Positions 830-56,838 of a stretch of 64,000 nt of DNA are shown here, one piece after another (positions within the stretch are counted from its first letter, which is position 1; each line of letters opens with the position of its first letter). The position numbers were made by a program, and so were the translations under genes. The stretch lies in NCBI GenBank assembly GCA_030141605.1, contig JAQGDQ010000984.1, forward strand, positions 9,201 through 73,200. Direction: 5' to 3'. This stretch comes from Tubiluchus corallicola (Eukaryota; Animalia; Priapulida). The notes below the pieces were generated by a model. The model worked only from the letters and a program-made list of their open reading frames with translations. It ran no database searches and was not told the DNA's origin.

Positions 830-966
830 CTCTTTCGTGCTAGTTGATCTTGATACTGAGCTCTTTGCTGGTGATGCTTCGTCTCCTCCGACAGCGTTTT
901 CCGCTTCTCTTCGTAAATCGCTCGCTCGTGTTCCAGTTTCATTTTCTCCATGGCTGCTTCGTATTC
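830..966 (-). CDS. ATAD3: ATAD3 coding exon 3 (gene continues off the left edge)
   Basis: tag|GAA TAC.. reads [46 protein letters not shown], the ATAD3 N-terminal coiled-coil region. Ends AG|gtaggt; phase fits exon 2. Confidence 0.93.
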
Positions 967-1637
967 CTACGCAAAATCATAGCCATTTTGTTACGAGCTT
1001 TTCTGTTATACTATAACAATAAGCTTCTCGACAAAAAATGTGAATAAGTTCAAACAACTTAGACGATGTTTGTTTCCACAAGAACATTTTAATGATTTTT
1101 ACATCAAATTAGTACTGACTATAGTTGAGTGTTTACCACATGTTTTTCCCCTGCAGCTTCAACACTTAACTCATCTCTTTACTTACAATTTACAGTTCAT
1201 ACATACGACCAACTAGTACAAAAATATCAAGGAATCTTTAGCCACGCTACGTTCAAGGTCACCAAAAAGTCAAAAGTTCATACTGGGCGTGACCCAAAAA
1301 CTGCCATCATGAAGGACGACCTGCACAACATCAAAACGTTATGTAAAGTGTCAACGACAAATTTGATTTAATTTTGATATGACAGCGTAATGACAAAAAC
1401 CAGAAGCAAAACTTATTAGATGTTTGCACCATTGTAAACACGTCCGAATAATTTAGAAAAAAAAGAACAAAAAAACGGAAGGATTTTAGGCAGTTTTTAA
1501 AAAAAGTTGTGCAAAGCAAGGATAGAAGTGATGGATAAAGGAATGTTCAAAAGGATAGGAAGAATGGCTTGTGAAGATTCAGCTAATCTTAAAAAATCTT
1601 AAATCTTAAAACAGAAAACTTAAAAAAACCGACACAC

Positions 1638-1837
1638 TTTAGCTTTGGCTTGAAATTCCGTCTGCTTGGTGGTCTCCTGCATCTTCGACAGTTCCAGAAC
1701 CTCTTTCGCGTTCCGAGACGCCTCCAGTTCCTTTGCGGCCTTGGCGGCCCTCTCCAGCGCGGCCGAATCGAATCTGTACGCCTCCATCTGCGTTTTGGTT
1801 TTCTCATCGAGTTCGCCTAGACGTTTCTTATCCGCAT
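1638..1837 (-). CDS. ATAD3: ATAD3 coding exon 2
   Basis: tttgcag|AT.. gives DADKKRLGELDEKTKTQMEAYRFDSAALERAAKAAKELEASRNAKEVLELSKMQETTKQTEFQAKAK. FDSAALERAAKAAKELE is the ATAD3 signature; donor gtgtgt. Confidence 0.93.
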
Positions 1838-1885
1838 CTGCAAATAAATAATAACAATAATAAATAATAATAATAACATAGCACA

Positions 1886-2403
1886 TCAAAGGACAAGAAA
1901 AGGGGTACCTACAGTAGGTTTAAAGGACAAGAAATGTGCACCTGAAGTAGGTTTAAAGGACAAGAAAAGGGGCTCCTGAAGTAGGTTTAAAAGACAAGAA
2001 AAGGGGGCTCCTGAAGTAGGTTTAAAAGACAAGAAAAGGGGGCACCTGAAGTAGGTTTAAAGGATAAGAAAAGGGGGTACGTGAAGTAAGTTTAAAGGAC
2101 AAGAAAAGGGGGTACCTGAAGTAGGTTTAAAGGACAAGAAAAGGGGTACCTAAAGCAGGTTTAAAGGACAAGAAATGGGGCACCTGAAGTAGGTTTAAAG
2201 GACAAGAAAAGGGGCTCCTGAAGTAGGTTTAAAGGACAAGAAAAGGGGCTCCTGAAGTAGGTTTAAAAGACAAGAAAAGGGGCTCCTGAAGTAGGTTTAA
2301 TAGACAAGAAAAGGGGGGCACCTGAAGTAGGTTTAAAGGATAAGAAAAAGGGTTACCTGAAGTAAGTTTAAAGGACAAGAAAAGAGGGTACCTGAAGTAG
2401 GTT
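1886..2403. repeat. About 14 copies of a 36-39 nt unit derived from the terminus of Kolobok-like MITE family C
   Basis: Unit ttaaaggacaagaaaagggg(g)tacctgaagtaggt. The last unit continues into the MITE body seen inverted at about 9560-9669. Confidence 0.85.
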
Positions 2404-3326
2404 TCAGAAAAATTGCCTTAAAAAATTATATTACTCTATAGCAATTTTATGCCTATATCTTACTCGCGTTGAAAGGATTTTTTGTTTGTTTTCATTTTAA
2501 ATACTGTACCGACCGTAGCATTACGTGACATCATATACGCACAACGTAAATCATGGGATGAAAGGGAAATGTTAAATTTTGTCCCAAAAACTTTAAAAAA
2601 TTATCAGCAGTTGTAAAATGCCAGTGGGATACAGGCTATATTTAGCACACGCGGGCACAGGTAGAAAAAAATAATTATTATGTGTAAACAAGATGGACAT
2701 ACTGAACAAAAGTACCAAGCCAAAAAATGTTTTCTTATTAAAAACATAATTTGGGACTGAAAGGGTTAAACAAAATGCATGTTATTCCTTTGCCACAAAA
2801 ATGCAACAGCATAACACATCGTCGAATAAATAACCAGTTTTCATTGCCGGTTCCAAACATGTGAACGTGCCCTTAATGAATGCTTCTGTTTTTTTAGTTG
2901 GTTAATGGCATATTTACACCAACTCAATCCACTCACTGGACCACAATTACATAATACAACGGTTATGGTTATACAAAACGTTTGGGGAGATGGTATACAG
3001 GATGAATAGCAGGAAGGTGTCCATCGAGGACCTCGGCTACAGTGCACATTGTGCTAATTCTGTTACTGCATCTGTGTTTTGTGTTGTTATCATTATAGCC
3101 AAAAATAGTGTAAAATATAATAATTATAATAATTATAGTCATAAATGCTGTAAAATATAATTATTAGTTTATAAAAGATATACAGTTTTTTGTTTATTAT
3201 TGACTCGGCTGAAAGCATGAAATTTAAAAAAACGTATTTATTTGGAATGGCTAAATAACTTTTGCCGCTAAAATTTGAAAATAAAATGCTAGGGCAAAAA
3301 ATCTTTCATTAACGTATCAGTTAATC

Positions 3327-3807
3327 CAGGGGTGTGCAAATTATCTGACTAGCCGGGCCACATTAAACTTTCCCGCAATTCCTGCGGGCCACAGGCAGTT
3401 TGATCAAGGAGCCAAGCACAGAAAGGCCTAATAACGATTTTTTGCATCCGACCTGCGTACATCATTACTACTACACACAAGAAACTATTTTAGAAGTTAT
3501 TAAAATTTATATTACAAACCATATATTTCTACTTTCAGGACAGATAGTGGTAATTTCATTACAATGCATATTAGTAATGTGTATCACACAGTCTGTGTAG
3601 TACAGTGACATTAAGCTACAACCGTCTTGTAAGGGTTAATGGCATCCGATCTAGTAGAAAAAACTACCTGCACTATCTTTGGGATCGTGGCACGGACTTC
3701 AGCTGGATACACTCAATTAATCGCCCCGGCCGCACTTTCATTAGGTTGACAAATCTCTTGGCGGGCCGCACAAATTCTCTTGGCGGGCCGCAACTTGCAC
3801 ACCCCTG
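3327..3807 (-). mobile_element. hAT-like MITE, family A, inverted copy
   Basis: Reverse complement of 220-720; TSD agttaatc / atttaatc. Confidence 0.88.
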
Positions 3808-4167
3808 ATTTAATCAAAGCCTTGTGAACTTAAGAATTATACATACCCTATGTTATTAATTGTGCTAAACTTATAAAGAATTACTTCCATAATTTGCCCT
3901 CCCAAAAAAACAAATTGACAGGCCTATTGTACCCAGACGCACTATCAAATTAAAAAGCTGAGATAAGAGAAAAACTTGCCTAGCTTAATGAGAGAAGGTT
4001 TTTCTATGACTGTTCGATTATTTATTGACTATGTCGAGAATTTCCGTTGATCTAATAAATTACCTAGTTGAGAACTAGCTGGTCTAAATTGATGTTTTAT
4101 CGTCTTTAAAGCCATCAAACTGAAATGTTTGTTCATTTATTTATGCGTTATTTAAAGGAAAAGTCTA

Positions 4168-4611
4168 TAGGTTTTACACGTCAAATGTAGACACAGGAAA
4201 GTTCAAATGTGACTTAGGTAAGTCAAATGTAGATGCATTACTTTGAATAAATCGGTAATTAAGTTATTTAAGTGCAAATTAGAAAAAGATAAACCAAAGA
4301 CAGTGCATCTATTAGTAGGCCTATAACGTACGTTGTTATTTTAACTTAGGAGTAATTATTAAATTGAAATTAAAGAAGATTAAATTTAACATCCTTAAAC
4401 TTTAACAACTATCCCACATTTGAGATACGAATGTCACATTTGACTTGACACGTGTCTACATTTGACTTACCAAAAATGCTTAAGATTTCTTGAAAACCAT
4501 TGTTAACACATTTGAACTACCTAAGTCTACATTTGAGTTACCAAGACACATTTAAATTACCTAAATCTACATTTGAGTTAACGTAGGTCTACATTTGACA
4601 TGTAAAACCTA
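4168..4611. mobile_element. TA-flanked MITE, family D (second copy at 17227-17696)
   Basis: TIRs taggttttacacgtcaaatgtagac / gtctacatttgacatgtaaaaccta, TA on both sides, internal caaatgt/acatttg subrepeats. Confidence 0.82.
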
Positions 4612-4741
4612 TAGAAGTTCAGTTAGTGTATAGCTAGAAAAAAACGTTTGTAGCTGTGAAATAAGAGGATGAACAAAAATATGAAAATATGAAGTATGAA
4701 CACAAAGATGATAACAAATTGGTTAGACGGCACATTATGAG

Positions 4742-5400
4742 CAGCGGCGGATTATGATTTTATGGGCCTTAGGCTTGAGCTTGGAACGGGCCTTTTAAAT
4801 GTTGCTACACTGCTGAGCTGACGATACAACTACAGATGTATCGGCAAATTGTTTCCAATAACCTTCTGTCACGGTTCCCAAATGTTTACATATGTGTTAG
4901 AATGTACTTTTGATTGTTTCAAACTGCAAGTGAGGAACGATCATTCTCTGCTCTGAAAAGGATAAAAACTTATTTACGGTCATCTCAAAAGGATGACAAA
5001 TTAAACAATTTATCACTGATGCATATTGAGTCAGATATGTTGAAAAAAAATGGACTTTTCAGAAATTATAACTGACTTTTCCCCCAGAAAAATTCGGAAA
5101 CTGAAATTTTGAACTTAAACTTAAACTGTGTAAACGTGAATTGTGTAAACTTAAATTGGGTAAACTTGAATTGTGTAAACTTAAATTGTGTAAACTTGAT
5201 TTGTGTAAACCCGATTTGAAATATAGTGACTGACTTTTGAAAAAAAACTTTTTTCTATATTTTATTTTGGCGGGCCCCTTGCTCTTTTGTCAATTTATTT
5301 TTTTTTACAAAAAATTTTTTTTCGTTTTATTTTGCCGGGCCCCTTTTGATCCCGGGCCTTAGGCTTCAGCCTATTCAGCCTATAGGGCTATCCGCTACAC
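4742..5400 (+). mobile_element. Internally deleted hAT element with a decayed transposase dimerization domain
   Basis: 8-bp TSD attatgag on both sides; left end cagcggcggat. About 4935-5100 translates in part to ERSFSALKRIKTYLRSSQKDDKLNNLSLMHIESD, with frameshifts or stops around it. Confidence 0.82.
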
Positions 5401-5499
5401 ATTATGAGTTAGTATACAATATCTAAGTTTTCACTGTAAATCAACGACATTTTAGTTTAACAAATCTAGCACTTTATGCTATAATTTTACTATAAGTAA

Positions 5500-5827
5500 T
5501 TGATTAATTGAGTGTATCCAGCTGAAGTCCGTGACACGATCCCAAAGATAGTGCGGGTAGTTTTTTCTACTAGATCGGATGCCATGAACCCTTACAAGAC
5601 GGTTGTAGCTTAATGTCACTGTACTACACAGACTGTGCGATACACATTACTAATATGCATTGTAATGAAATTACCAGTACCTGTCCTGAAAGTATAAATA
5701 TATGGTTTGTAATATAAATTTTAATAACTTCTAAAATAGTTTCTTGAGCGTAGTAGTAATGATGTACGCAGGTCGGATGCAAAAAAAATCGTTATTAGGC
5801 CTTTCTGTACTTGGCTCCTTGATCAAA
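5500..5827 (+). mobile_element. hAT-like MITE, family A, internal fragment
   Basis: Near-identical to about 323-648; TIRs absent. Confidence 0.8.
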
Positions 5828-5987
5828 ATGACTGCGGTCATCGTAGGAGTTTAAATTTACATGTTTTATACAGCGTTATTGCCGACGCAAGCCTAATATG
5901 TGAAAAGGCAAACGTAAGTGGTATAAAATTTCAATACAAATTTTTTAAGCTTTATGTAAGTTGATGGTTTTCTTGTGCTTTAACATA

Positions 5988-6700
5988 GACATAGAACATT
6001 TATTTTCTCCAATTAGTTTAACACCAAAAGTTTTTTAAATATTAAGTAATTATAATCATGGAGCAGGGCAGGGAAGGACCATAGGGTCATCTAATCTCCT
6101 GCCCTTTCTTATAAATAGATTAGTATATTAAAAATTAACGGTGATGCTGCAGATAACAAAAACAAAAACAAATAAGAAAAAAATAGAAATAATGATACAA
6201 ATTATTCAAAAAGAACTGAAAATAAAAAATAATAAAGTTGGATACCTAAATCTAAACAAAACAATACAATTATTCAGTAATTAGGATTATTATATGTAGT
6301 AGTTTCAAATGCGGTCTTATTAACAGGGGAATTTGACCAAGGTTAGTGAGTAAAGTTAAAAACCGAGAGTATGGAAAGAAAAAAATAAGTATCAAAAAAG
6401 TGTAATATATCAAAATTTCTGAGAAAAAGTAAGTATGAGAAAGAGCAACAATTACTTGCTAGCGAGACGGAGAGGAAAAAAGAAAAAAAAGAAATTGCTA
6501 GCTTGCTTATTACTACTACTAGTCTTACAAGTTGTGCTACAGGTATATCCATTTAGTAAGATTTTTGTGTATTTTTTGGAAGCAGAAAATAAGCTGCCTT
6601 CAAAGGTATCTTTTGGCAAGGAATTCCATAATTTAACGAGAGTTGAGAGGGTGATGAATAGTAAATCGTAAATACATGATGTAGGTAAATCATTCTTTTA
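5988..6700 (-). mobile_element. 3' fragment of a CR1/L2-group LINE (3' part repeated at 29948-30420)
   Basis: Minus-strand remnant KLWNSLPK near 6615-6635; the 3' region with a stem-loop has a close second copy at about 29948-30420. Confidence 0.6.
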
Positions 6701-6721
6701 CCGGTCTGGCATTTCACTCAC

Positions 6722-6836
6722 CTGAAGGCTCACCACTATCACTTCCACCACCTCCTGTTGGATATTGAGGAAACTGCGGGATTTCTGGCGGCGGCACATC
6801 TTTCCTAATGCCAAGCAACGGGTTTAACCAAGACAT
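6722..6836 (-). CDS. ATAD3: ATAD3 coding exon 1 (start codon at 6836)
   Basis: MSWLNPLLGIRKDVPPPEIPQFPQYPTGGGGSDSGEPS. An MSWL start with a Pro/Gly-rich tail is typical of ATAD3; CAG|gtgagt donor in phase 1 matches exon 2. Confidence 0.88.
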
Positions 6837-7113
6837 TTTAAACGATCCTCAAATAATATTCTAAATTACGTAATTACAGTACTTAAATGGTTAAGTCTTA
6901 GTAACTCCTCTTTTTACAGTACAGCAAGAAACACATGGTCTATAAGACGTTCTCTTGTTTCGACTTGCGCCACCTATTGGAGAAATCCTGTTAAGTTAAT
7001 GTTTTCATTACTGTTTTGTGATTGTGCTAAGTGAAATATTAAAATTTTGTTGTTTTCGTTATTTACTATGCAGTAAATTCACCAAACTGGCTTCCAAAAA
7101 GAGAAATAATGTG
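6837..7113. promoter_or_regulatory. Putative bidirectional promoter shared by ATAD3 and FEM1C, with a CTCF-like/CCAAT motif at 6966-6980
   Basis: Divergent ATGs are separated by 277 bp. Minus-strand CCAATAGGTGGCGCA resembles the CTCF core and contains CCAAT. Confidence 0.6.
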
Positions 7114-7657
7114 ATGGAGTTTAGGAATGTCGTTTATATCGCTGCGCGTGATGGAAAGTTAAGACGACTACGAATTTTCTTGGATCATAGGTCAAGAGAA
7201 GACGTTAAACTTCTTGTTTCAGCAAAAACAGATGACGCAACACCTCTTCTGGCGGCATGTCGGAAAGGCCATTACGAAGTCGCCGAATATCTGGTCAAAG
7301 AATGTGGGGCTGACGTAGAACAAGTGGGGTCCGTGAGTTTTGATAATGAAACAATTGAGGGTGCACCTCCCCTGTGGTGTGCGGCGGCAGCAGGTTATCT
7401 CCCAATAGTTCAGCTTCTACAGCGACATGGCGCATCGGTGAATAGCACAACTTACACAAATTCTACGCCGCTGCGAGCCGCATGTTTTGACGGACACATG
7501 GAAATTGTGAAATACCTGATAAACAACAAGGCAGATATTGAAGTTCCTAATAGACACGGTCATACATGCCTTATGATATCTTGTTACAAAAAACATTACG
7601 AAATTGCACGATACTTGATAAAACTTGGTGCCGATATTAATAGGAAAAGTTTAAAAG
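7114..7657 (+). CDS. FEM1C: Fem-1 homolog (FEM1C/A-like) coding exon 1, ankyrin repeats
   Basis: MEFRNVVYIAARDGKLRRL..GAPPLWCAAAAGY..TNSTPLRAACFDGH..NRHGHTCLMISCYK..KSLK; donor G|gtttga in phase 1. Confidence 0.93.
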
Positions 7658-8259
7658 GTTTGATTCTAATTCATTTTTTTTTGGTTTGTTTTATGTTTTA
7701 ATTGGTTAGTTAAATACTTTACATATTTTCTTAATCATCATTTCATATTTTTCATTTTATTTCTTTGTTGCATAGCTTATTTAGTTATTTCGCTTTCACG
7801 TTTAATGTATTCCCCCATAAATTCATGTGAACAGCAGCACTACAAATTTTTTACAATTTACACTAATCTGAAAAGGGTAGCTGACTCGATGACCTATTGG
7901 TCTTTCGCTACCCTTTCTTCTGCACCCCCCCTCAACTGTTTCCTTTATGCTTAATTTATCCTTTTTAATCAGTAAGTATAAAAATAATAGTCAATTTGTA
8001 TACAGGTGTAAGTGAGGAGATAAATAAAAATGTCTATGTCATTGCTCTTAGCAAGATACAGTCAAACCTTGTTATACGCCAGGTCTGGGACATTGATCGC
8101 TCAATATGGCGGTACAGCGTAGTTCACAGTAAGGCGAGGTTCATGAAATATCAAAGCAATTCCAGTCTTTAACCTCGATTTTGTTTCCTAGTTAATTTTA
8201 ATGTCATAAATAGTACAATATTAGTATACCTACAACAATACGTGTGGATATAACAATCT

Positions 8260-8880
8260 GGGTATATAAAGAATTTAATACCTTAGAAAGGGCATGCTAA
8301 AATATTACAAATCGGCGTTAGGAGTAAAGAGCTCAACACCCACACCAGCTGTCTTGAGGGAATTGGGCAAATATCCCATCAACCTATCAATTAAAATGAG
8401 ACATTAAGTATTGGCTTTGTTTAGTTTCACTGCCAGATAACAAACTGTGCAAGAAAGATTATATTTTGTCTAAACAATATAATGTACCGTAGTATCTAGG
8501 ACTAACAAAAATACTGTCTGATATTAATCTAGTGTTTTTATTAGAAAATGATATAGTGCCATTGTATATGAATACTTTGTATATTGGTGTAGGAAAGTTG
8601 CAAGTATGTTATGTCACCTTTCGGAAAAATGCACTAGCCGAAATATCAAAGTTATCTTTTTACAGTAAATTCAAAACTTCTTTTAAATTTGAATCTTATT
8701 TGTTAAATGTAAAGAATGTTAAAAATCGAAAAACATTGACTAAGCTTAGAACAAGCGCTTACTCAATGCCTATTGTACATTTTTGGTACATTAACAAAAT
8801 TAATGCAGGTGTAGTTCTACGGCAGCACGTTGCAAAACTTTTATGTAACACAATGTGGAATAGCAGATAGATAGATAATT
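8260..8880 (+). mobile_element. Decayed LINE ORF2 C-terminal fragment (RTEX-like)
   Basis: GVKSSTPTPAVLRELGKYPI and SKLSFYSKFKTSFKFESYL..RKTLTKLRTSAYSMPI resemble post-RT motifs of invertebrate RTEX-type elements (recalled, not searched); frames are broken. Confidence 0.65.
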
Positions 8881-8978
8881 TTATTTATCTGTTGTAATAC
8901 ACGCAAAAAAACAATTACATAGCAAAATAAATTGTTAGTATTAGAGAAAGGGTGGCGAAAAAACCCTAGAGGACCCTT

Positions 8979-9669
8979 TTAAGCACAAGAAAACCCTGCA
9001 TAAACATAAAACTTGAAAAATTCGTTTTGAAATTTTATATCGCTTATATACTGCCTTTTTGCGTGCAGGACTTCAATCGGCAGTCACGCTGTATAGAACA
9101 TGTAAATTTAAACTCCCGCGATGACCGTTAGACGCAGCCATTTTCACGACAGGTCATTTGAAACAAGTTTAAATAACATTTTGTAAAGTTTGAAAAAATA
9201 ATCAGAGCATTCGTAGCGCACAAGTCACTAGCTAAATAAAATTTAAAATTACTGTATCTTGTCAATAACATTAAAAATAGGTTTTTTGGTTAGTAAGTGG
9301 TGCACCCTGGAGGGTGAGTCAGCGACATTTTATCAATTGGTGAAAACATTTTAAATAATTAATAATTTTCTTTTCTAGTTACATAAGCCTTTCTAGCAGG
9401 TGAGCAAAATGCTAAGTAATATAACTTTGCATGGAAAGTTTTTAGGGACATAATTTAACATTGCCTTTTCTTCCCTTGATTTATGTTTGGTACACGGCGT
9501 CATGTAATGGCTCTGTCGGAACAGTATTGCCGGAGATTTAAAATGAAAACAAACTAAAATTCCTTTCTGTGCGAGTAAGATATACGCATAAAATTGCTAT
9601 AAAGTAATATAATTTTTTAAGGCGATTTTTCTGAAACCTACTTCAGGTACCCCTTTTCTTGTCCTTTAA
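8979..9669. mobile_element. Kolobok/T2-like MITE, family C (other copies about 35540-36208 and 51530-52002)
   Basis: TTAA-flanked ends ttaagcacaagaaa / tttcttgtcctttaa; body repeated elsewhere in the window. Confidence 0.72.
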
Positions 9670-9841
9670 GTAAGGTTATAACAAGAATATCTTGCGATGA
9701 AATACGCATAAAATGAGTAAATCAAACTGAAATAACACTGTAAAGTGGCTTTATAAACAAATAAAGCAGATTGGTTTGTGCGTGATGTTACAATGACAGG
9801 CAAAAAAAGCAAAAATGAAATTTTTATCAGCATTATTTATT

Positions 9842-10340
9842 CAGGGATGAGAATTTTCTGCGGATACGCGGAATACCGAGTTTTTGGAAGACCAGTAGTG
9901 CCATTTTTTTTAAATTGAGTGAATTCGTTGTGAAAATTTTTACGGACCCAGTACATTATTTCACAAGCTGACCGCTAGTTGGCAGGCCGTCAGTTTGTTT
10001 ACATAACGTACATCAGTGTAATCACGTGTATATCTCTATGTATAATAATATACAATCAGTTGTGCAGAGTTATTTGAGTCAATTGCAGACAGTTTATATA
10101 TACTTTTGCATAGGAGCGGCCAGTACTTAGGCGTTTTTGAGACAATTAGGTATCATGTATCCTTGATAGTTGGGTATTTTAAATTATGCATGAAACAAGG
10201 TAATTGATATTTTAAGTCCGCTTAGAGGCTCTCTATGGTCATCAAAATTGCAATTTGTTGCTTTGCCCCCTTGAACCCCCGCGACCTCCAAACCCCCGGC
10301 CTGTTTCAGAGTTTTTTGCAATTTGTCATTCTCATCCCTG
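9842..10340. mobile_element. CAGGG-terminated MITE, family F (inverted copies about 25630-26123 and 61292-61875)
   Basis: TIRs cagggatgagaat / attctcatccctg; 6-bp direct repeat tttatt on both sides. Confidence 0.8.
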
Positions 10341-10932
10341 TTTATTAGACTCGCTGTTAATAAAATCAGTTGCTTTAATTCATTCAAAAACAGCTGGTAC
10401 GGGTCACTCCTATTCAAATGTATATAAAAACTACTGGCAATTCACTAAAAAAAATCCATGTAATTGACGCAAGATTTTTGTATCAGACATCCATGTAAGT
10501 GTGGTATGTCTATATACGTACAATCATGTTAAAGCAAAACCGGACCCAATCTTAAACTGCAGGTCAAAACAATTTACTCTTTAAAATATTGAAAGGAAAC
10601 GCTATTTTTTTTAAAGAATGACTTACGTGAAAGAATTATTACCACACAAACACAATTTCATGTTCGCGCCACTAGTTTTTCACTGTTACATGCATTTCGC
10701 CATTCTCTAGTTAGACGGGCAGTAGCGCCTGCATTTCGGAAACGCGTTGCAGAAAAACAGATGCTGTACCTCCTAGTTCGGATGTGTTGGTTTGTGACGA
10801 ATTGCACACATTCGGCAGCTCATGCATGAGCACAGCGGTAAATGTGAGTGTTGAATTTTTATGAAAGCTGAATTTTTAATCATTTGCCTAGTGGGGTCCT
10901 GTTGAAACTCCTGCTACTTTTCACAAAAATGT

Positions 10933-11489
10933 TTAACCCTTATAGGGTCACGATTTTTTACAACCAATTTTGGTAACTGGGGGGTAAAAAATTATTTGTG
11001 GTTATGCTGATCACCATAGGATACATTATACCTCTGCTTAAAGTCATGTGACTTACTAGTAATGCGAAATTTAAATTCACTTAGTTACGTTCCCTTATCT
11101 ATGCTGGAATAAATGTAGACAACCGACATTGTTAGCGCGTGTGTAAAAGTCATTGTTATTTTGAATTTATTGTCTACTACTTTCTTCTTTTAGGTGGAGT
11201 AATTTGAGTAACTGACATTATCAGATACATCGCCCGTATGATGTATAGACAAGCGAAGTAAAGTGACGACAATTTTGAAAAATCGACATATTGCATTTTC
11301 ACTTTTATTTCGTGGTGAGACAATGCACCTAAAATAAATAACTGAAAGTATTTTGTGCAAAAAACATATTTAGAAAAAGTCATAGAAAAGGTTTACTGAG
11401 AAGCGTATGGTAAAAAGGTAAAATGCAAAAAACCGGGCTGGGGGTAATTTTTTACCCCCCCCCCCCCCCGGTGACCCTATAAGGGTTAA
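10933..11489. mobile_element. piggyBac-like MITE (partial copy about 40225-40464)
   Basis: TTAA + cccttatagggtcac ... gtgaccctataaggg + TTAA. Confidence 0.82.
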
Positions 11490-11625
11490 TCAGTAAACTG
11501 TTGCTGTTACACCACCAGGCGGCGCCAGTAATCCACAGGTCAATATTCTTTGCGATTTTTTTACAAGCGTAAATGTCATCGAACATATAAGAGTACAGAG
11601 TTAACTTTGACAAAATAACTTTCAC

Positions 11626-11878
11626 CAGACGGTTTAGTCTAGTGGCAATGCGTCTGCTTTCCGTCTGAGAGGTCGTGAGTTCGAACCAGCGGCCGCGTCG
11701 TACCAAAGACTTTAAAAATGGTACCTGCTGTTGCCCTGCCTGGCACGTGGTATTTAAGGTAAAAGTGGGGTAATAATAGTCTCTGTTATGTAGTTGTAGG
11801 TTATTTACAGTCGGCGATAAAAGCTGACTTTAAATAAATATTATTATTATTATTAATATTATTATTATTATTATTATA
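11626..11878 (+). mobile_element. tRNA-derived SINE
   Basis: A-box tagtctagtgg, B-box gagttcgaacc, core taccaaagactttaaaaatggtacctgctg (resembles the Meta/MESC-type SINE core, from memory) and a (tta)n tail. Confidence 0.7.
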
Positions 11879-12551
11879 GAGAATAAGTGTAAAGATCTAA
11901 CATTTAAAACTTTCGCCACAAGAAATGTGATATTTGCTTGTTTGTAGAGAATCACCTAAGCAAATCCTAGCAAGAAACTGCTTATTCTGAGTTAACCTTT
12001 TTTACATATACATGTATGTTTATAGTGAAACAGTAGGCCTATAGTCTATTATATGCACCATAACTGAATACAAGAAAAGTTAATTACGTAAACGAAAAGT
12101 TCTCGATAAAAATGTCTCATTTTAAGTGAGTCATTAATGTCTAAATAATTAATTTAATTATTTTCTTTTAATTCGTTAGTTTAAACTTTAAAATTAATTA
12201 CTCAAACCTGTTTACATTTGCGTGAGCATTGTGATTCGTCTTTGGCAAAATTTAACATTACGTATGCAAAATGTTCTCAATAAAAATGCTTGATTTTAAG
12301 TGAGTCACTAATGTCTAAATAATTAATTTAATTATTTTCTTTTAATTCATTAGTTTAACTTTTAAAATTGATGACTCTGACCGGTGTGTACTTGTGTGAA
12401 TTTTTTCCCATCCCAAAATGCATTGTATAAGGAGGTTTGACTGTACTTCTATTCTAGTTCAAATATTCAAAATTCTATTTTACTTAAACTTTTAACACCA
12501 AAATACTCACTTAGATTATTGAACAGAGCTACGCAAAAATTCAGTATTGTA

Positions 12552-13485
12552 CAGTCAACCTTTCCTGGATATAAGGGACACCTCCCGACCGGAAAAAACC
12601 GTCTCTTATATCCCATGACCCTTATAGTCGAAGTTGAGTCAGACCGAGGGTGTTCTTAGACCTGTACTTTTCTGTACTTTTACCCGTATTTTTATGGATT
12701 ATTGCTACACACTCAGTGCAAACGGCATGTAGGAAGCTCCTTCAGTAACGCGAGATGTATGTGACTGTAAAAACTGAGCTGTTCGAAGGCCGAGTTTATG
12801 AAAAATTGAGGTTAAAAATCGATCAATTTCACTTGATTTGATAGTGCTATGAGCATATAGTTAATTAAAAAAACCAGATTTAAAATAATTAGTTTGTTTT
12901 GAAATGGCGGTCAGTTATTAAAGTTCAAAAAAATGACTAAGTCCAGTTTGAGCAAAAGGTTAAAAATTGTACTTTTGGCATTCTATTATTTATAACTAAG
13001 GATTCCAAATACAGGCTTTAGTATGTTAGTGTTGTTAAATGGAGTGCATTGCACGAGAAATAATCATATCAAGTCATATGGCAACATAGTATTCGTTTTT
13101 CCAGCATCCAAAATTCATCCAAATGATGTTTTACCTTAACAGGTGTGAAAATGGACCTTTTACAAAAGTGTGCTAACTTGTCAACTTTAGAGTGTTATAA
13201 AAGATGCCAATTCAGCTGATAGTTAATTGTTAATATAATTTTTGGTAGCCCATTGTAGTGTAATTAGATAATCATAAACATTTTGCACCTCCACATTTAC
13301 CTGGGTTTCCATTACGCGGGACCTGAAGATATCATCCCTTATAACCAAAAGTCTCTTATATCTGAGTGCCTTATATACGAAGATTTTTATAAGGAAAACA
13401 GTCACGAAAAATCAGGATCGGTGTTGGTGGTCCCTTATAAGCGAGTGTCCTTTATAAACGAGTACCCTATACCCGAGGTTGACTG
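12552..13485. mobile_element. pogo/Tigger-like non-autonomous element
   Basis: TA + cagtcaacct ... aggttgactg + TA, with subterminal ccttata repeats. Confidence 0.78.
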
Positions 13486-13609
13486 TACTATGAGGTTGTA
13501 CTAGAATGCTGAATACAGTTCTTCAATTCCTGCTGCCGTTTTGTTAAATTGTCGTTTTCACTGTAAGCAAATTAAGTTTCATATTTTTGTATACATGTAG
13601 TACATTGTT

Positions 13610-14842
13610 TATTTGTTTATTTACCAGTTGTTTGTTTATTTTGCTAAATATATTGTTTCATTTCCAGGCAACACTGCAATGCATGTTTACTTTACCAGCT
13701 GTGTTATTTTGCTAAATGTATCGTTTCTTTTCCAGGCAACACTGCAACGCTTGTTCATTTTGCTAAATGTATCGTTTCTTTTCCAGGCAACACTGCAACG
13801 CTTGTTCATTTTGCTAAATGTGTCGTTTCTTTTCTAGGCAACACTGCAACGCTTGTTCATTTTGCTAAATGTATCGTTTCTTTCCCAGGCAACACTGCAA
13901 CGCTTGTTTATTTTACCAGCTCTGTTTATTTTGCTAAACGTATCGTTTCTTTTCCAGGCAACACTGCAATGCTTGTTTATTTTGCTAAATGTATCGTTTC
14001 TTTTCCAGGCAACACTGCAACGCTTGGTTATTTTGCTAAATGTATCGTTTCTTTCCCAGGCAACACTGCAACGCTTGTTTACTTTACCAGCTCTTGTTTA
14101 TTTTGCTAAACGTGTCGTTTCTTTCCCAGGCAACACTGCAATGCTTGTTTACTTTACCAGCTATTTGTTTATTTTGCTAAATGTATCGTTTCTTTGCCAG
14201 GCAACACTGCAACGCTTGGTTATTTTACTAAATGTATCGTTTCTTTCCCAGGCAACACTGCAGTGCTTGTTTACTTTACCAGCTCTTGTTTATTTTGCTA
14301 AACGTGTCGTTTCTTTCCCAGGCAACACTGCAATGCTTGTTTACTTTACCAGCTATTTGTTTATTTTGCTAAACGTGTCGTTTCTTTCCCAGGCAACACT
14401 GCAATGCTTGTTTACTTTACCAGCTATTTGTTTATTTTGCTAAATGTATCGTTTCTTTGCCAGGCAACACTGCAATGCTTGTTTATTTTGCTAAACGTAT
14501 CGTTTCTTTTCCAGGCAACACTGCAACGCTTGGTTATTTTGCTAAATGTATCGTTTCTTTCCCAGGCAACACTGCAGTGCTTGTTTACTTTACCAGCTCT
14601 TGTTTATTTTGCTAAACGTGTCGTTTCTTTCCCAGGCAACACTGCAATGCTTGTTTACTTTACCAGCTATTTGTTTATTTTGCTAAATGTATCGTTTCTT
14701 TGCCAGGCAACACTGCAATGCTTGTTTATTTTGCTAAACGTATTGTTTCATTTCCAGGCGACACTGCAATGTTTGTTTACTTTACAAGTTCTTTGTTTAT
14801 TTTGCTAAATGTATTGTTTATTTTCCAGGCAACACTGCAATG
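13610..14842 (+). repeat. Tandem array (51-nt and 68-71-nt units) of the FEM1C intron/exon 2 junction, 20 acceptor copies
   Basis: Each unit has ttttgctaaa(t/c)g..tttc..ccag|gcaacactgca; 19 copies counted before the real acceptor at 14827-14828. Confidence 0.93.
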
Positions 14843-16186
14843 CACGACTGTGCCGAATCGGGCGCATTGAACATAATGAAATTACTTCTCACTCATGGTG
14901 CTAAGATGAGCCCCGACTCAAACGGAATGACCCCTCTGCTGGCCGCGGCCGTCACGGGACACACGGAAATCGTCGAGTATCTCATCACCCGGCCGGAGAT
15001 CAGCCGACTGGAGCACATCGAGGCGCTGGAGCTGCTCGGCGCCACGTTCGTGGACAAGAAGCGGGACATGTTGGGGGCGCTGCAGTACTGGAAGAGGTCC
15101 ATGGAGGAGAGGTTCTCCGAAGCGGCGCCTCCCATGCCGAAGCCCGTCACCATCTCGCAGATCGGCGCCTACGAGAACGTGCTGGAGGTACAGTCGCTGG
15201 ACCAGCTGGCGGATCTCATCTCCGATCCGGACGAGATGCGGATGCAGGCGCTGTTGGTGCGCGAGCGGATTCTCGGGCCCGCCCACCCGGACACGTCTTA
15301 CTACATCCGCTTTCGGGGAGCCGTCTACGCCGACATGGGCAACTTCCGGAAGTGCATCTCCCTGTGGATGTACGCGCTGGACATGCAACAGCGGCTGCAG
15401 GAACCTCTCGGACCGATGACCCAGAGCTCCTTCCTGTCCTTTGCGGAGCTCTTCTCGTTCATGATGTCCGACACGCGGTTCCACCTCCACGAAAAACCAA
15501 AAGTGGAGTTCGCCGACGTCATGTGCATCTTTCGGAAGAGCGTCACCGAAGTGGAGCGCGGAGCGGAGTACCTGCGAACGATCGTCCCGCCTTCCGCTCG
15601 CGCCGGCAACTGCCCGCTGGAGAAGGACACCGTCCACTTCACGCGAACGGTCATCATCACGCTCCACCTGATCTGCATCCTGTGTCACATCCAGCCGAAC
15701 ATGACGGAGGACGAGGAGCAGGAGATGAAGACGGCCGTCTACAGCTACGTTCACACCGAGCCGCGCGTCCACAACAGCTCCACGCTGCTCCACCTCGCCT
15801 GCAGTCGACAGAGCACCACCGTGGGGAAGTATCCGGTGTGCAAGTTTCCCTCCCTGCCCGTCGTGCAGCTGCTGCTGGAAGTGGGCGGGTCCCCGACCGC
15901 CGTGGACGGCGACGGCAACACCCCCCTCCACGTGGTGGCGAAGAACCACGTCCGCGAGCCGGAGATCATCAAGACTCTGCTGGAAGGCGGAGCTCACGTG
16001 GATACGTGCAATCTTCAGCGGCAGACATTCGTGGATCTTTTGCAACCCGGTACGGTACAAGAGATAGTCTCTCCACTGAGATACATGACATTGCAGTGTC
16101 TGGCTGCCAGACAGGTTAGAAAATACGGCTTACGATACAAAAACACGTTAACTAAGAGGCTAAGCGATTTCGTTGAACTGCATTGA
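14829..16186 (+). CDS. FEM1C: Fem-1 homolog (FEM1C/A-like) coding exon 2 to stop
   Basis: ttttccag|GC AAC ACT GCA ATG CAC completes KG-NTAMHDCAESG. Also contains ALELLGATFVDKKRD, DPDEMRMQALLVRERILGPAHPDTSYYIR and the C-terminal TLQCLAAR (VHL/BC-box) ..FVELH*. The joined CDS is 1902 nt (633 aa). Confidence 0.95.
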
Positions 16187-17173
16187 TTAGCATAATTTTG
16201 TTAAAGGAAAACCGGACGATTGTTTAGATAATTAGCAGAAGCACAAGTACCATTATACTTCAAACTAATATTATATGAGAAAAATTCAATATTGGGAACC
16301 CTGTGGATCTGGCACCCCATCCTAGATACGCCTTGAACTTGGTACAGTAAACTCTGCATAGCTGAAAATCGTACAACTCAAATTTTGCGTAACTCAAAGA
16401 ATTTCAGTTGAGCGGATGAAATCCTTCGTTTTTCTCACAAAAAAACTTTGCTTAACTCAAAATATGTAACTCAAAATTTCGCCTAACTCAAATAAAAAAT
16501 TATGGCTCATTTAATCAAAATACTTGTAATTTAATTTGCTCTAAAATGCAATTTATACTCTAGAAAAGCAAAAGTTGACGTGTATACGGTTTACGATACA
16601 AAAACACGCTAACTAAGAGGCTGAGCGATTTCGTTGAACTGCATTGATTAGCAATTAGCATGATTAGCGTGATTTTGTTAAAGGAAGACCGGACGATCAT
16701 TTAGACTCAATCTCATTTTAATTTACTGTCCAAAATATACATTTTACATGTCAAATGTAGACATGCGTTAACTCAAATGTAATTTTGTTAAAAGAAGACC
16801 GGACGATTGTTTAGATAATTAGCAGAAGGCTAACACAGAGTACCCATTTTACTTCAAAATAATATTATATGAGAAAAATTCAATATTGGGAACCCTGGCG
16901 GTTGACCGTCGAACTGGCCTTGTACCTGTCAGTTCAGTTGTGACGTGGTAGACAATTCGAGAGCTAAAGGTTAACACAGTGATAATTTGGAATTTGAATT
17001 AGTAAAACTTAAGATTTGCACAATTTTGCTGTATCACACTGAATGTTATACAGTAGCACTGTACTTCAATTTTCGCTTTCGCAAATGCATACAACACCCT
17101 CGTTGGATGTTTGTGCTGTTGAAAATCATGTTCACTTGTTACGTAATCACTAGCTGGGGCCGTTAATAATTAA

Positions 17174-26683: not shown

Positions 26684-28430
<1,747 letters not shown>

Positions 28431-36824: not shown

Positions 36825-37385
36825 TAAAATTCTATCCACTACGACAATGAACCACTCAAACATTCCTAGTGCCTTAGGCCACCTACACTTGAACCTCGCC
36901 AGCATTAGCAAGCGAGAACAGCTTCAGCTACTCCTTGGAGACAACATATTTTATCCAAAAACCATAAAATTCTATCCACTACAACAACGAACCACTCAAA
37001 CATTCCTAGTGCCTTACGCCACCTACACTTGAACCTCGCCAGCATTAGCAAGCGAGAACAGCTTCAGTTACTCCTTGGAGACAACATATTTTATCCAAAA
37101 ACCATAAAATTCTATCCACTACGACAATGAACCACTCAAACATTCCTAGTGCCTTAGGCCACCTACACTTGAACCTCGCCAGCATTAGCAAGCGAGAACA
37201 GCTTCAGCTACTCCTTGGAGACAACATATTTTATCCAAAAACCATAAAATTCTATCCACTACGACAATGAACCACTCAAACATTCCTAGTGCCTTAGGCC
37301 ACCTACACTTGAACCTCGCCAGCACTAGCAAGCGAGAACAGCTTCAGCTGCTCCTTGGTGACGACATATTTTATCCAAAACAATA
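36825..37385. repeat. About 140-nt tandem repeat, 4 copies
   Basis: aaattctatccactacgacaatgaaccactc..ttttatccaaaaaccat repeated. Confidence 0.9.
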
Positions 37386-37405
37386 AAATCAAAATGGCCA
37401 CCCAC

Positions 37406-37540
37406 CTCTCCGTCGAATTCTATCCACAAATTTGTCCTGAGCAGTTCCATTCGCGGCAGGTTCAGATAAATCGTCTTGAACGAGTCTTCGAACACGTGAG
37501 CGCGACGAACTTTGAAAGCGAATTTATTTGGCGTAGTCGA
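37406..37540 (-). CDS. NEDD4: NEDD4 exon (start of HECT)
   Basis: STTPNKFAFKVRRAHVFEDSFKTIYLNLPRMELLRTNLWIEFDGE; ttacag / gtgggt. Confidence 0.92.
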
Positions 37541-41717: not shown

Positions 41718-42045
41718 CTAGTGAACCAAGAACATTTGAAATATATCGGTAGGGAACCACGAACATTTGCAGCTTAACGGTGTGAACCAAGAACATTTGA
41801 ACTTTATCGGTTCCGAACCAAGACATCTAAAGCATATCGGTATTAATCCAAGAACATTTGAAGCCTATTGGTAGTGAACTAACAACATTTAGAACTTATC
41901 GGTAGTGAACCAAGAGCATATGAATGAAGCACATCGGCAGTGAACCAAAAAAAAATTGAAACTTATCGGCAACAAACCGAAAACATTTGAAACTAACCGG
42001 TACTGGACCAAGAACATTGAAAAAACTTACCGGTAGTGGACCGAG
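41718..42045 (-). repeat. Degenerate about 30-nt repeat (about 10 copies) derived from the donor junction of exon 42031-42180
   Basis: Plus-strand units gaacatttgaaacttatcggtagtgaaccaa align with the real junction gaacattgaaaaaacttaccggtagtggacc. Confidence 0.78.
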
Positions 42046-45374: not shown

Positions 45375-45488
45375 TTTGCTCCCATGTATGTGATGTCACC
45401 GATAGTTAGGCTAGCCCGCCATTAATTAAGATTTAATCATTAATTTAAGATTTTCTTCAAACCAGCAACTATGTAGTGAAAGGGTTAT
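44890..45488. mobile_element. piggyBac-like MITE whose right end is part of the 64-nt array unit
   Basis: ttaa ccctttcgctac ... gtagtgaaaggg ttat; contains a (GT)n tract at about 45302-45371. Confidence 0.65.
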
Positions 45489-48400
45489 AAATGAGTGAGG
45501 CAAAGAGGTACCTGAGTCGTGAACCTCTGCAACTATGTAGTGAAAGGGTTATAAATGAGTGAGGCAAAGAGGTACCTGAGTCGTGAACCTCTGCAACTAT
45601 GTAGTGAAAGGGTTATAAATGAGAGAAGCAAAGAGGTACCTGAGTCGTGAACCTCTGCAACTACGTAGTGAAAGGGTTATAAATGAGTGAGGCAAAGAGG
45701 TACCTGTGTTGTGAACCTCTGCAACTACGTAGTGAAAGGGTTATAAATGAGTGAGGCAAAGAGGTACCTGAGTCGTGAACCTCTGCAATTATGTAGTGAA
45801 AGGGTTATAAATGCGTGAGGCAAAGAGGTACCTGAGTCGTGAACCTCTCCAACTATGTAGTGAAAGGGTTATAAATGAGTGAGGCAAAGAGGTACCTGTG
45901 TTGTGAACCTCTGCAATTATGTAGTGAAAGGGTTATAAATGAGTGAGGCAAAGAGGTACCTGAGTCGTGAACCTCTCCAACTATGTAGTGAAAGGGTTAT
46001 AAATGAGTGAGGCAAAGAGGTACCTGTGTTGTGAACCTCTGCAACTATGTAGTGAAAGGGTTATAAATGAGTGAGGCAAAGAGGTACCTGTGTTGTGAAC
46101 CTCTGCAATTATGTAGTGTAAGGGTTATAAATGAGTGAGGCAAAGAGGTACCTGTGTTGTGAACCTCTGCAACTATGTAGTGAAAGGCTTATAAATGAGT
46201 GAGGCAAAGAGGTACCTGTGTTGTGAACCTCTGCAATTATGTAGTGAAAGGGTTATAAATGAGTGAGGCAAAGAGGTACCTGTGTTGTGAACCTCTGCAA
46301 TTATGTAGTGAAAGGGTTATAAATGCGTGAGGCAAAGAGGTACCTGTGTTGTGAACCTCTACAACTATGTAGTGAAAGGGTTATAAATGCGTGAGGCAGA
46401 GGTACCTGAGTCGTGAACCTCTGCAACTATGTAGTGAAAGGGTTATAAATGAGTGAGGCAAAGAGGTACCTGTGTTGTGAACCTCTGCAACTATGTAGTG
46501 AAAGGGTTATAAATGAGTGAGGCAAAGAGGTACCTGTGTTGTGAACCTCTGCAATTATGTAGTGAAAGGGTTATAAATGAGTGAGGCAAAGAGGTACCTG
46601 TGTTGTGAACCTCTGCAATTATGTAGTGAAAGGGTTATAAATGAGTGAGGCAAAGAGGTACCTGTGTTGTGAACCTCTGCAACTATGTAGTGAAAGGCTT
46701 ATAAATGAGTGAGGCAAAGAGGTACCTGTGTTGTGAACCTCTGCAACTATGTAGTGAAAGGGTTATAAATGAGTGAGGCAAAGAGGTACCTGTGTTGTGA
46801 ACCTCTGCAATTATGTAGTGAAAGGGTTATAAATGAGTGAGGCAAAGAGGTACCTGTGTTGTGAACCTCTGCAATTATGTAGTGAAAGGGTTATAAATGC
46901 GTGAGGCAAAGAGGTACCTGTGTTGTGAACCTCTACAACTATGTAGTGAAAGGGTTATAAATGCGTGAGGCAGAGGTACCTGAGTCGTGAACCTCTGCAA
47001 CTATGTAGTGAAAGGGTTATAAATGAGTGAGGCAAAGAGGTACCTGTGTTGTGAACCTCTGCAACTATGTAGTGAAAGGGTTATAAATGAGTGAGGCAAA
47101 GAGGTACCTGTGTTGTGAACCTCTGCAATTATGTAGTGAAAGGGTTATAAATGAGTGAGGCAAAGAGGTACCTGTGTTGTGAACCTCTGCAACTATGTAG
47201 TGAAAGGCTTATAAATGAGTGAGGCAAAGAGGTAAATGTGTTGTGAACCTCTGCAATTATGTAGTGAAAGGGTTATAAATGAGTGAGGCAAAGAGGTACC
47301 TGTGTTGTGAACCTCTGCAATTATGTAGTGAAAGGGTTATAAATGCGTGAGGCAAAGAGGTACCTGTGTTGTGAACCTCTACAACTATGTAGTGAAAGGG
47401 TTATAAATGCGTGAGGCAGAGGTACCTGAGTCGTGAACCTCTGCAACTATGTAGTGAAAGGGTTATAAATGAGTGAGGCAAAGAGGTACCTGTGTTGTGA
47501 ACCTCTCCAACTATGTAGTGAAAGGGTTATAAATGCGTGAGGCAAAGAGGTACCTGTGTTGTGAACCTCTGCAACTATGTAGTGAAAGGATTATAAATGC
47601 GTGAGGCAAAGAGGTACCTGAGTCGTGAACCTCTGCAATTATGTAGTGAAAGGGTTATAAATGCGTGAGGCAAAGAGGTACCTGTGTTGTGAACCTCTCC
47701 AATTATGTAGTGAAAGGGTTATAAATGCGTGAGGCAAAGAGGTACCTGTGTTGTGAACCTCTGCAATTATGTAGTGAAAGGGTTATAAATGAGTGAGGCA
47801 AAGAGGTACCTGTGTTGTGAACCTCTGCAACTATGTAGTGACAGGCTTATAAATGAGTGAGGCAAAGAGGTAAATGTGTTGTGAACCTCTGCAATTATGT
47901 AGTGAAAGGGTTATAAATGAGTGAGGCAAAGAGGTACCTGTGTTGTGAACCTCTGCAATTATGTAGTGAAAGGGTTATAAATGCGTGAGGCAAAGAGGTA
48001 CCTGTGTTGTGAACCTCTACAACTATGTAGCGCAAGGGTTATAAATGCGTGAGGCAGAGGTACCTGAGTCGTGAACCTCTGCAACTATGTAGTGAAAGGG
48101 TTATAAATGAGTGAGGCAAAGAGGTACCTGTGTTGTGAACCTCTCCAACTATGTAGTGAAAGGGTTATAAATGCGTGAGGCAAAGAGGTACCTGTGTTGT
48201 GAACCTCTGCAACTATGTAGTGAAAGGGTTATAAATGCGTGAGGCAAAGAGGTACCTGAGTCGTGAACCTCTGCAATTATGTAGTGAAAGGGTTATAAAT
48301 GCGTGAGGCAAAGAGGTACCTGTGTTGTGAACCTCTCCAATTATGTAGTGAAAGGGTTATAAATGCGTGAGGCAAAGAGGTACCTGTGTTGTGAACCTCT

Positions 48401-50186
48401 GCAATTATGTAGTGAAAGGGTTATAAATGAGTGAGGCAAAGAGGTACCTGTGTTGTGAACCTCTCCAACTATGTAGTGAAAGGGTTATAAATGCGTGAGG
48501 CAAAGAGGTACCTGTGTCGTGAACCTCTGCAACTATGTAGTGAAAGGGTTATAAATGAGTGAGGCAAAGAGGTACCTGAGTCGTGAACCTCTGCAACTAT
48601 GTAGTGAAAGGGTTATAAATGAGTGAGGCAAACAGGTTCCTGAGTCGTGAACCTCTACAACTATGTAGTGAAAGGGTTATACATGAGTGAGGCAAAGAGG
48701 TACCTGAGTCGTGAACCTCTCCAACTATGTAGTGAAAGGGTTATAAATGAGTGTGGCAAAGAGGTACCTGAGTCGTGAACCTCTGCAATTATGTAGTGAA
48801 AGGGTTATAAATGAGTGAGGCAAAGAGGTACCTGTGTTGTGAACCTCTCCAACTATGTAGTGAAAGGGTTATAAATGCGTGAGGCAAAGAGGTACCTGTG
48901 TTGTGAACCTCTGCAACTATGTAGTGAAAGGATTATAAATGCGTGAGGCAAAGAGGTACCTGAGTCGTGAACCTCTGCAATTATGTAGTGAAAGGGTTAT
49001 AAATGCGTGAGGCAAAGAGGTACCTGTGTTGTGAACCTCTCCAATTATGTAGTGAAAGGGTTATAAATGCGTGAGGCAAAGAGGTACCTGTGTTGTGAAC
49101 CTCTGCAATTATGTAGTGAAAGGGTTATAAATGAGTGAGGCAAAGAGGTACCTGTGTTGTGAACCTCTGCAACTATGTAGTGAAAGGCTTATAAATGAGT
49201 GAGGCAAAGAGGTAAATGTGTTGTGAACCTCTGCAATTATGTAGTGAAAGGGTTATAAATGAGTGAGGCAAAGAGGTACCTGTGTTGTGAACCTCTGCAA
49301 TTATGTAGTGAAAGGGTTATAAATGCGTGAGGCAAAGAGGTACCTGTGTTGTGAACCTCTACAACTATGTAGCGCAAGGGTTATAAATGCGTGAGGCAGA
49401 GGTACCTGAGTCGTGAACCTCTGCAACTATGTAGTGAAAGGGTTATAAATGAGTGAGGCAAAGAGGTACCTGTGTTGTGAACCTCTCCAACTATGTAGTG
49501 AAAGGGTTATAAATGCGTGAGGCAAAGAGGTACCTGTGTTGTGAACCTCTGCAACTATGTAGTGAAAGGGTTATAAATGCGTGAGGCAAAGAGGTACCTG
49601 AGTCGTGAACCTCTGCAATTATGTAGTGAAAGGGTTATAAATGCGTGAGGCAAAGAGGTACCTGTGTTGTGAACCTCTCCAATTATGTAGTGAAAGGGTT
49701 ATAAATGCGTGAGGCAAAGAGGTACCTGTGTTGTGAACCTCTGCAATTATGTAGTGAAAGGGTTATAAATGAGTGAGGCAAAGAGGTACCTGTGTTGTGA
49801 ACCTCTCCAACTATGTAGTGAAAGGGTTATAAATGCGTGAGGCAAAGAGGTACCTGTGTCGTGAACCTCTGCAACTATGTAGTGAAAGGGTTATAAATGA
49901 GTGAGGCAAAGAGGTACCTGTGTTGTGAACCTCTCCAACTATGTAGTGAAAGGGTTATAAATGAGTGAGGCAAAGAGGTACCTGTGTTGTGAACCTCTCC
50001 AACTATGTAGTGAAAGGGTTATAAATGCGTGAGGCAAAGAGGTACCTGTGTCGTGAACCTCTGCAACTATGTAGTGAAAGGGTTATAAATGAGTGAGGCA
50101 AAGAGGTACCTGAGTCGTGAACCTCTGCAACTACGTAGTGAAAGGGTTATAAATGAGTGAGGCAAAGAGGTACCTGAGTCGTGAAC
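45466..50186 (-). repeat. 64-nt minisatellite (about 74 copies) containing the donor junction of NEDD4 exon 50174-50354
   Basis: Sense unit gtacctctttgcctcactcatttataaccctttcactacatagttgcag-aggttcacgactcag; the array runs directly into the exon end. Confidence 0.95.
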
Positions 50187-56444: not shown

Positions 56445-56797
56445 GTTTTCGCATCACAACCGAAACGGTTAACTGAAACGGTTCACTCAAACTAATTTCA
56501 CGCAAAGATCTTACAATTCTAAATGTCTTACCAATCTATTTTCGCAACACAACCGAAACGGTTCACTCAAACTGATTTCGCGCAAAGATCTTACAATTCT
56601 AAATGTCTTACCAATCTATTTTCGCAACACAACCGAAACGGTTCACTCAAACTGATTTCGCGCAAAGATCTTATAACTCTAAACGTCTTACCAATCTGTT
56701 TTCGCATCAGAACCAAAACGGTTAACTGAAACGGTTCACTCAAACTGATTTCGCGCACAGATCTTATAACTCTAAATGTCTTACCAATCTATTTTCG
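56445..56797 (-). repeat. 80-93-nt repeat carrying three extra copies of the donor of exon 56785-56838
   Basis: tcttaccaatct(a/g)ttttcg near 56526, 56606, 56686 and at the real junction near 56779. Confidence 0.9.
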
Positions 56798-56838
56798 TCG
56801 AAAACTTCGAAAAGCAACCGATTCTTGTCGGGTATGAC
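56785..56838 (-). CDS. NEDD4: NEDD4 C2 exon
   Basis: VIPDKNRLLFEVFDENRL; tccag / gtaaga. Confidence 0.93.

Follow-up and report, generated by a model that had tools for sequence, protein, structure and literature searches.

The window, i.e., the whole 64,000-nt stretch of DNA analysed here, carries three genes, ATAD3-like, fem-1, and NEDD4-like, whose features are listed in Table 1. The first of them is presumably ATAD3-like, a name given on the basis of its peptide. Its first exon (minus strand, 6722-7114 region) lies head to head with fem-1, the two start codons being less than 300 nt apart, and this layout suggests that they share a promoter. At approximately 7072, a possible acceptor gives a hint of a 5' untranslated fem-1 exon.

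Table 1. Positions of the genes, signals, and junction-spanning arrays in the window
Feature	Position	Strand	Remark
ATAD3-like exons	830-6840	-	
fem-1 gene	coding 7114-7657 and 14829-16186	+	
fem-1 A/C-type first coding exon	7114..7657	+	ATG 7114 to phase-1 donor; ankyrin repeats
fem-1 intron	7658..14828	+	7,171 nt; phase-1 GT-AG
Junction-spanning minisatellite	13610..14844	+	20 units; higher-order blocks inside
19 decoy acceptors	13666..14757	+	AG ends from 13667 through 14757; predicted products of 197-319 aa
TAA in true reading frame	14735..14737	+	closes all more distal in-frame acceptors
Authentic acceptor AG	14827..14828	+	sole one yielding 633 aa
fem-1 second coding exon	14829..16186	+	to TGA stop; probably terminal exon
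Candidate poly(A) signal AATAAA	16491..16496	+	putative
NEDD4-like gene	62066-25416	-	21 exons in window
Acceptor-spanning array, 51 nt x ~30	26849..28430	-	before NEDD4 HECT exon starting 26869
Decayed donor-spanning array, 31 nt x ~10	41719..42045	-	after NEDD4 exon ending 42031; GT mostly lost
Donor-spanning array, 64 nt x ~74	45465..50186	-	after NEDD4 exon ending 50174
Donor-spanning array, 80 nt	56471..56800	-	after NEDD4 exon ending 56785; 3 extra intact donors

Ankyrin repeats are present in both coding exons of fem-1, and the AATAAA motifs at 16491 and 17172 indicate that the second exon is probably the terminal one. When exon 1 was joined to the exon after AG 14828, a product of 633 aa was obtained. 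Its best match, P0001, is a 633-aa protein from a 1,989-nt contig, probably a spliced transcript; 598 of the 633 residues are equal (94%), and the residues across the junction are the same. As a stand-in for the window product, to which it is 94% identical, P0001 was compared with the human proteins, and it aligned end to end with FEM1C at 744.6 bits, compared to 416.2 bits for FEM1B. The product is a full-length ankyrin/TPR protein nearer to FEM1C than to FEM1B and belongs to the FEM1A/C group. In a tree of 26 proteins, made up of the window product and 25 of the 120 listed matches (those with a named source or a top score) and holding no vertebrate FEM1A or FEM1C entries, the window product and P0001 grouped with Priapulus caudatus and one unnamed protein with a support of 100/99, which makes a priapulid, or something closely related to one, the likely source of the DNA. 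The initial annotation had called the gene FEM1C. The gene is a fem-1 of the A/C type of an invertebrate, and the greater nearness to FEM1C than to FEM1B was borne out; the name itself overstates the orthology to the vertebrate gene, since this fem-1 is probably the one gene of an invertebrate that corresponds to both FEM1A and FEM1C of vertebrates.

The FEM1A/FEM1C (Drosophila CG6966-type) CRL2 substrate receptors likewise have N-terminal and C-terminal ankyrin repeats, and they have an intron position at K/GNTA in common with the window fem-1. The same position is found in other animals; among 80 fetched metagenome fem-1 loci, a phase-1 acceptor at the same place was seen in 6, while 48 were continuous at the junction, 1 was unclassified, and 25 were without the motif. 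No junction copy was found at the homologous acceptors of the 6 intron-bearing loci (0/6), a small sample for which the base rate also predicts none.

Several other features of the gene were recorded. GC3 jumps within fem-1, with 0.27-0.44 in exon 1, 0.78-0.93 in most of exon 2, and 0.49 in the last 50 codons. The C-terminal box at 16140-16165 reads TLTKRL here, TLPTRL in P0001, and HIPEKL in human FEM1C; the proline absent from TLTKRL of this allele is one that we take to be part of the cullin-2 box. The stop region is duplicated, in that 16123-16192 (the last 64 coding bases including the stop codon, and 6 further bases) occurs again 461 nt downstream at 16584-16653 with 96% identity, and the 3' flank has further local copies.

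The last 1.2 kb of the fem-1 intron is a tandem array. Each of its 20 units is a copy of the intron/exon-2 junction, with approximately 35-55 intron bases and 12-16 exon bases, and carries a pyrimidine tract, a YAG, and the start of the exon. A pattern scan with YAG/GC(A/G)ACAC (the slash before GC is the junction) gave 20 matches in the array, and none was found outside the array on either strand of the 64-kb window. The last match is the authentic acceptor and the other 19 are intact decoy 3' splice sites, as the initial annotation had counted them. The AGs end at 13667, 13735, 13786, 13837, 13888, 13957, 14008, 14059, 14129, and 14200 (units 1-10) and at 14251, 14321, 14392, 14463, 14514, 14565, 14635, 14706, 14757, and 14828 (units 11-20), and the AG-to-AG spacing is 51 or 68-71 nt. 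The units had been described as essentially the same as the real site. This is correct for the pyrimidine tract and the YAG, which occur in all of them, and less strictly so for the rest; the branch-like word gctaaa is present in 19 of the 20 units (unit 14251 has actaaa), and the first 12 exon bases are the same as those of the true site in 16 of the 19 decoys. The word gctaaa does not fully match YTRAY, the branch-point consensus.

To the claim that only the last acceptor leads to a full-length protein, the joined reading frames gave a clear answer. When exon 1, whose phase-1 donor follows 7657, was joined to the 19 decoys one by one, the frames encoded 197-319 aa, and the predicted stops come 1,316-2,349 nt early. 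The nearest decoy, AG 14757, lies 71 nt upstream of the true site and shifts the frame to a TGA at 14868, as had been noted. The TAA in the true frame was also found where it had been reported, and all of the more distal decoys do truncate the protein; however, the TAA accounts for the 3 of the 19 decoys that are in the true frame, and the other 16 truncate via a frameshift. The predicted decoy products are not the same for all units and terminate in hydrophobic tails, roughly 12-134 residues long, that derive from the repeat, so that no single defined isoform is predicted. The array contains 14 further AGs, mostly weaker (1.2-7.6 bits), among which AG 14788 is the sole extra one past the in-frame TAA, and it is out of frame. 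No in-frame alternative full-length product was obtained from any of the 33 other AGs from 13600 to 14827.

The strength of the sites was scored by a matrix of the 23 other acceptors of the window. The true site scored 11.6 bits and the decoys 7.2-11.5 bits, compared to a leave-one-out median of 7.6 bits for the real acceptors. The scores of 18 of the 19 decoys were above this median, and those of 8 of the 19 were within 2 bits of the true site; in the remaining intron, none of the 320 other AGs reached 11.6 bits and only one came within 2 bits. The weakest decoy was the nearest one, 14757, with 7.2 bits. The decoys look like usable acceptors and, by sequence, would be largely equivalent to the true site. 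The idea that the decoys are skipped for a poorer sequence was rejected, because the scores overlap that of the true site. The earlier statement that the spliceosome must skip 19 equivalent sites is supported by these scores; to make the full-length protein it would have to pass 19 good-looking acceptors, whose transcription precedes that of the true site by up to 1,161 nt.

RNA structure masking was considered as well. For the YAG of the true site the predicted probability of being unpaired was 0.21, and for the YAGs of the decoys it was 0.03-0.12, a difference too small to rely on, and the pyrimidine tracts of the true site and of the decoys did not differ in predicted unpairedness. A ladder of micro-exons looks unlikely, as the internal GT words score -3.0 to 3.7 bits as donors. 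The sequence on the exon side is different; the 100 nt after the true site have a T fraction of 0.21 and a purine fraction of 0.53, compared to 0.38-0.45 and 0.36-0.42, respectively, after the decoys. Run X2, which is RNA by guess only, gave one 169-nt piece inside exon 2 (14846-15013, 17 differences) and none at the fem-1 exon 1/exon 2 junction, and it was counted neither in favour of any reading nor against it. The full-length junction is seen in the protein of the relative, P0001, only, and P0001 may lack the array.

The internal variation of the array tells something of its history. Unit 1 agrees with the authentic junction in 48 of the 51 core positions and retains 16 bases of the exon, and the inner units agree in 44-47. 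Units 1, 19, and 20 share TATTG, whereas the 17 inner units have TATCG or TGTCG; the edge units are thus alike, and the inner ones share derived variants and blocks. Exact internal repeats of 109-146 nt, at offsets of 192, 243, 263, 314, and 506, point to a block-wise amplification. Since 18 of the 51 core columns vary, the chance that two given columns (the AG) stay invariant is approximately 0.4, and because of this chance the 19 intact AGs need no selection. The founder was likely a chance duplication of approximately 70 bp across the intron/exon-2 junction of fem-1, which would then have been amplified, likely by unequal exchange or slippage, and afterwards have undergone concerted turnover.

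The NEDD4-like gene has four amplified junction arrays and one two-copy junction duplication. When joined across the four arrays, its 21 window exons give a frame of 808 aa that stays open up to a single stop at its end; the exons were placed by distant homologues and frame continuity, and single boundaries may be off. A search for the NEDD4 protein of a close relative found none. In the acceptor array before the HECT exon, none of the 25 pattern-matched units keeps an AG in the authentic register (19 GCAA, 4 GCGA, and 2 GTAA), which reflects either that the array is older and has decayed or that decoy acceptors were selected against, and could mean that decoy acceptors do cost something. The donor array at 50174 is 4.7 kb long and has 70 exact CAG/GTACC, including the authentic one. 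At the acceptor at 37540, a two-copy duplication (37530-37590, minus strand) has an upstream AG 36 nt off, which is in frame without a stop and could add 12 residues. Furthermore, the arrays 36825-37389 and 58977-60547 begin 17 and 21 nt downstream of NEDD4 donors, which lie outside them, and this strengthens a hint of clustering at exon edges.

These neighbours raise the question of how special the fem-1 array is. Tandem repeats make up 20,664 of the 64,000 bases (32%) of the window, with 22 arrays of at least 150 bp. A gapped scan within 260 nt on the intron side, the thresholds of which were set after the arrays had been seen by eye, found a local junction-spanning copy at 6 of the 48 mapped splice junctions, namely the fem-1 acceptor, the NEDD4 donors 56785, 50174, and 42031, and the NEDD4 acceptors 37540 and 26869; an earlier scan with fixed thresholds found copies at 3 of the 48 and missed the decayed arrays. 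At control positions taken from sequence that is neither exonic nor part of the five junction arrays, the rate was 699/10,686 (6.5%). When fem-1 was left out, 5 of 47 junctions had a copy compared to 3.1 expected (P=0.19), an excess over the local background that is not significant. It is possible, though we hold it only tentatively, that exon-intron junctions are favoured seeds of minisatellites here, the array being neutral and its position non-random, a reading compatible with the explanation that we prefer below. The large arrays without fem-1 argue for it, since 4 of 21 straddle a junction compared to 1.0 expected (Poisson P=0.019; 0.022 in genic DNA only) in a post hoc test on one window, and two more are those beginning 17 and 21 nt from a donor; moreover, the available text on amphioxus has its authors suggesting that such repeats could be general in that lineage (PMC3087553). 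This excess may indicate that the origin is not fully random. However, the broader test, which includes the two-copy duplications, was the non-significant one, and survival bias beside exons could yield an equal excess without a biased origin.

We consider it quite probable that the fem-1 array is a tolerated minisatellite of the "mirage" type, that the last acceptor is the one used, that mis-splicing is rare and its product likely cleared, and that the array has no adaptive role. The last acceptor would be selected because it is the sole one before real exon sequence and the nearest to the 3' end of the probably terminal exon. The deciding cues would lie on the exon side, i.e., a purine- and GC-richer exon and terminal-exon definition, rather than in a better acceptor sequence; first-come scanning cannot explain it, since the authentic acceptor comes last. 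Use of the last site in this organism is likely on this reasoning, and the array would be tolerated because the spliceosome would pick that site. It would persist because mis-splicing would be rare and any mis-spliced RNA likely cleared by long-3'UTR NMD. Against this reading stands the fact that the decoys are not weak. Moreover, human data, in the accessible part of the report, have upstream 3' sites generally preferred and exon definition merely reducing the preference, for internal exons only (PMC9225289), and NMD in its long-3'UTR mode has a weak transcriptome-wide signal (PMC6173133).

If the decoys were used at a meaningful rate, the array length would set the FEM1 dose or the gene would give short ankyrin-only products, as the initial annotation had proposed. 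We regard this as unlikely. All 19 decoys keep the YAG, score like real acceptors, and are transcribed well ahead of the true site, and in the human 6-16 and CBS intron 13 arrays, so far as the available text goes, two pseudo-sites are used besides the authentic donor (PMC1557585). However, the retention of the AG is within reach of chance, a like architecture recurs on the unrelated NEDD4 junctions, the predicted products differ between units and carry hydrophobic repeat tails without forming one isoform, and the distant intron-bearing loci are without a junction copy, although they are few and the base rate predicts the same. With the background test above and the published amphioxus mirages added, the proposal of a device specific to FEM1 was not sustained. 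Its extended form, a copy-number rheostat in which each unit diverts a share of the fem-1 pre-mRNA, array length sets the dose of the CUL2 receptor, and junction-seeded arrays are a general source of expression variation, appears to us distinctly improbable, and nothing specific speaks in favour of dose control, which in either form we rate as low. It is hardly credible that decoy use is repaired by re-splicing, in which AAG/GC is recreated as a GC-type donor and joined to the last acceptor to give a normal mRNA. A GC follows the AG in every unit and the exact junction would be restored, but the recreated donor scores 1.5 bits, whereas 24 real donors of the window have 0.6-11.5 bits with a median of 7.5, and it is without a G at +5, on which GC donors usually depend; the GC merely opens the conserved glycine-asparagine codons. 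It is also very unlikely that the array, in whole or over much of its length, arose as an artefact of the assembly. No contig of run X1 spans the array and the bins 14018 to 14481 are without X1 cover, and the copy number of 20 is therefore provisional. On the other side, 15 different sequences, with structured variants, are seen among the 19 inter-AG units, and contigs of X1 agree with the left edge across two units (13419-13761, 4 differences), with two inner stretches, and with the right edge (14703-14846, 0 differences), although X1 may be the source sample and in that case would not be independent.

Read as a tolerated repeat, as we favour, the array is a tidy case, with many copies, of a repeat type already known, here in a probable priapulid. 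Its value would lie in a natural test of 3' splice-site choice, with 19 acceptors approximately as strong as the real one and transcribed first. Exclusive use of the last site would mean that, at an exon that is probably terminal, definition from the exon side prevails over first-come choice, and the same window also offers donor-side (70 copies) and decayed acceptor-side comparators. The locus would carry far greater weight if decoy use scaled with copy number.

By its sequence, the fem-1 array is most likely of the "mirage" type published for amphioxus, where, in the accessible portions of the reports, mirages are described in Adh3, troponin C, the globins BflGb6 and BflGb9, and PGBD5 (PMC3087553, PMC3902484), with units of 10-160 bp (PMC3087553), and as not disturbing splicing (PMC3087553, PMC3902484). 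The units of amphioxus mirages likewise lie across an exon-intron boundary and in many cases keep the splice signals, their edge units likewise escape homogenisation, and several occur per genome. The fem-1 units span the boundary, their sizes of 51 and 68-71 nt are inside the amphioxus range, and their splice signals are kept; unit variants and exact blocks, rather than a unit tree, speak for concerted evolution of the inner units with the edge units apart. BflGb6 is of the same acceptor-side type, comprising an intron's 3' end and the 5' portion of exon 2, and has 3-6 units compared to 20 at fem-1. Unlike the amphioxus mirages, the fem-1 array keeps the AG in all 19 decoys and its exon is probably terminal; its host groups with a priapulid, an ecdysozoan, whereas mirages are known from a cephalochordate, in which normal splicing and length variation were shown, while the fem-1 array is known from sequence alone.

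The human cases are simpler or of the opposite side. In CBS 844ins68, a 68-bp junction duplication, the distal copy is strongly favoured and the mRNA is normal, according to the available text (PMC2630376). Its 68 bp is close to the founder unit size here (68-71 nt); however, it has one extra copy compared to 19, and as a human polymorphism it rescues a point mutation. The portion of PMC10078293 at hand holds nothing on reiterated acceptors. Human donor-side arrays include the F7 IVS7 37-bp VNTR, 6-16 (25 pseudo-sites), CBS intron 13, LAMIN B2, and PDGF, and in the part of the source available the authentic site is used, either alone or with the nearest two extra sites (PMC1557585). In these, a splice site is likewise reiterated by a minisatellite, and the copy next to the exon is the sole or main one in use. 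Their direct equivalents in this window are the NEDD4 donor arrays, with 70 reiterated donors at 50174 compared to 25 in 6-16 (PMC1557585). The human arrays reiterate donors and their authentic site is transcribed first, whereas in the fem-1 acceptor array the authentic site is transcribed last.
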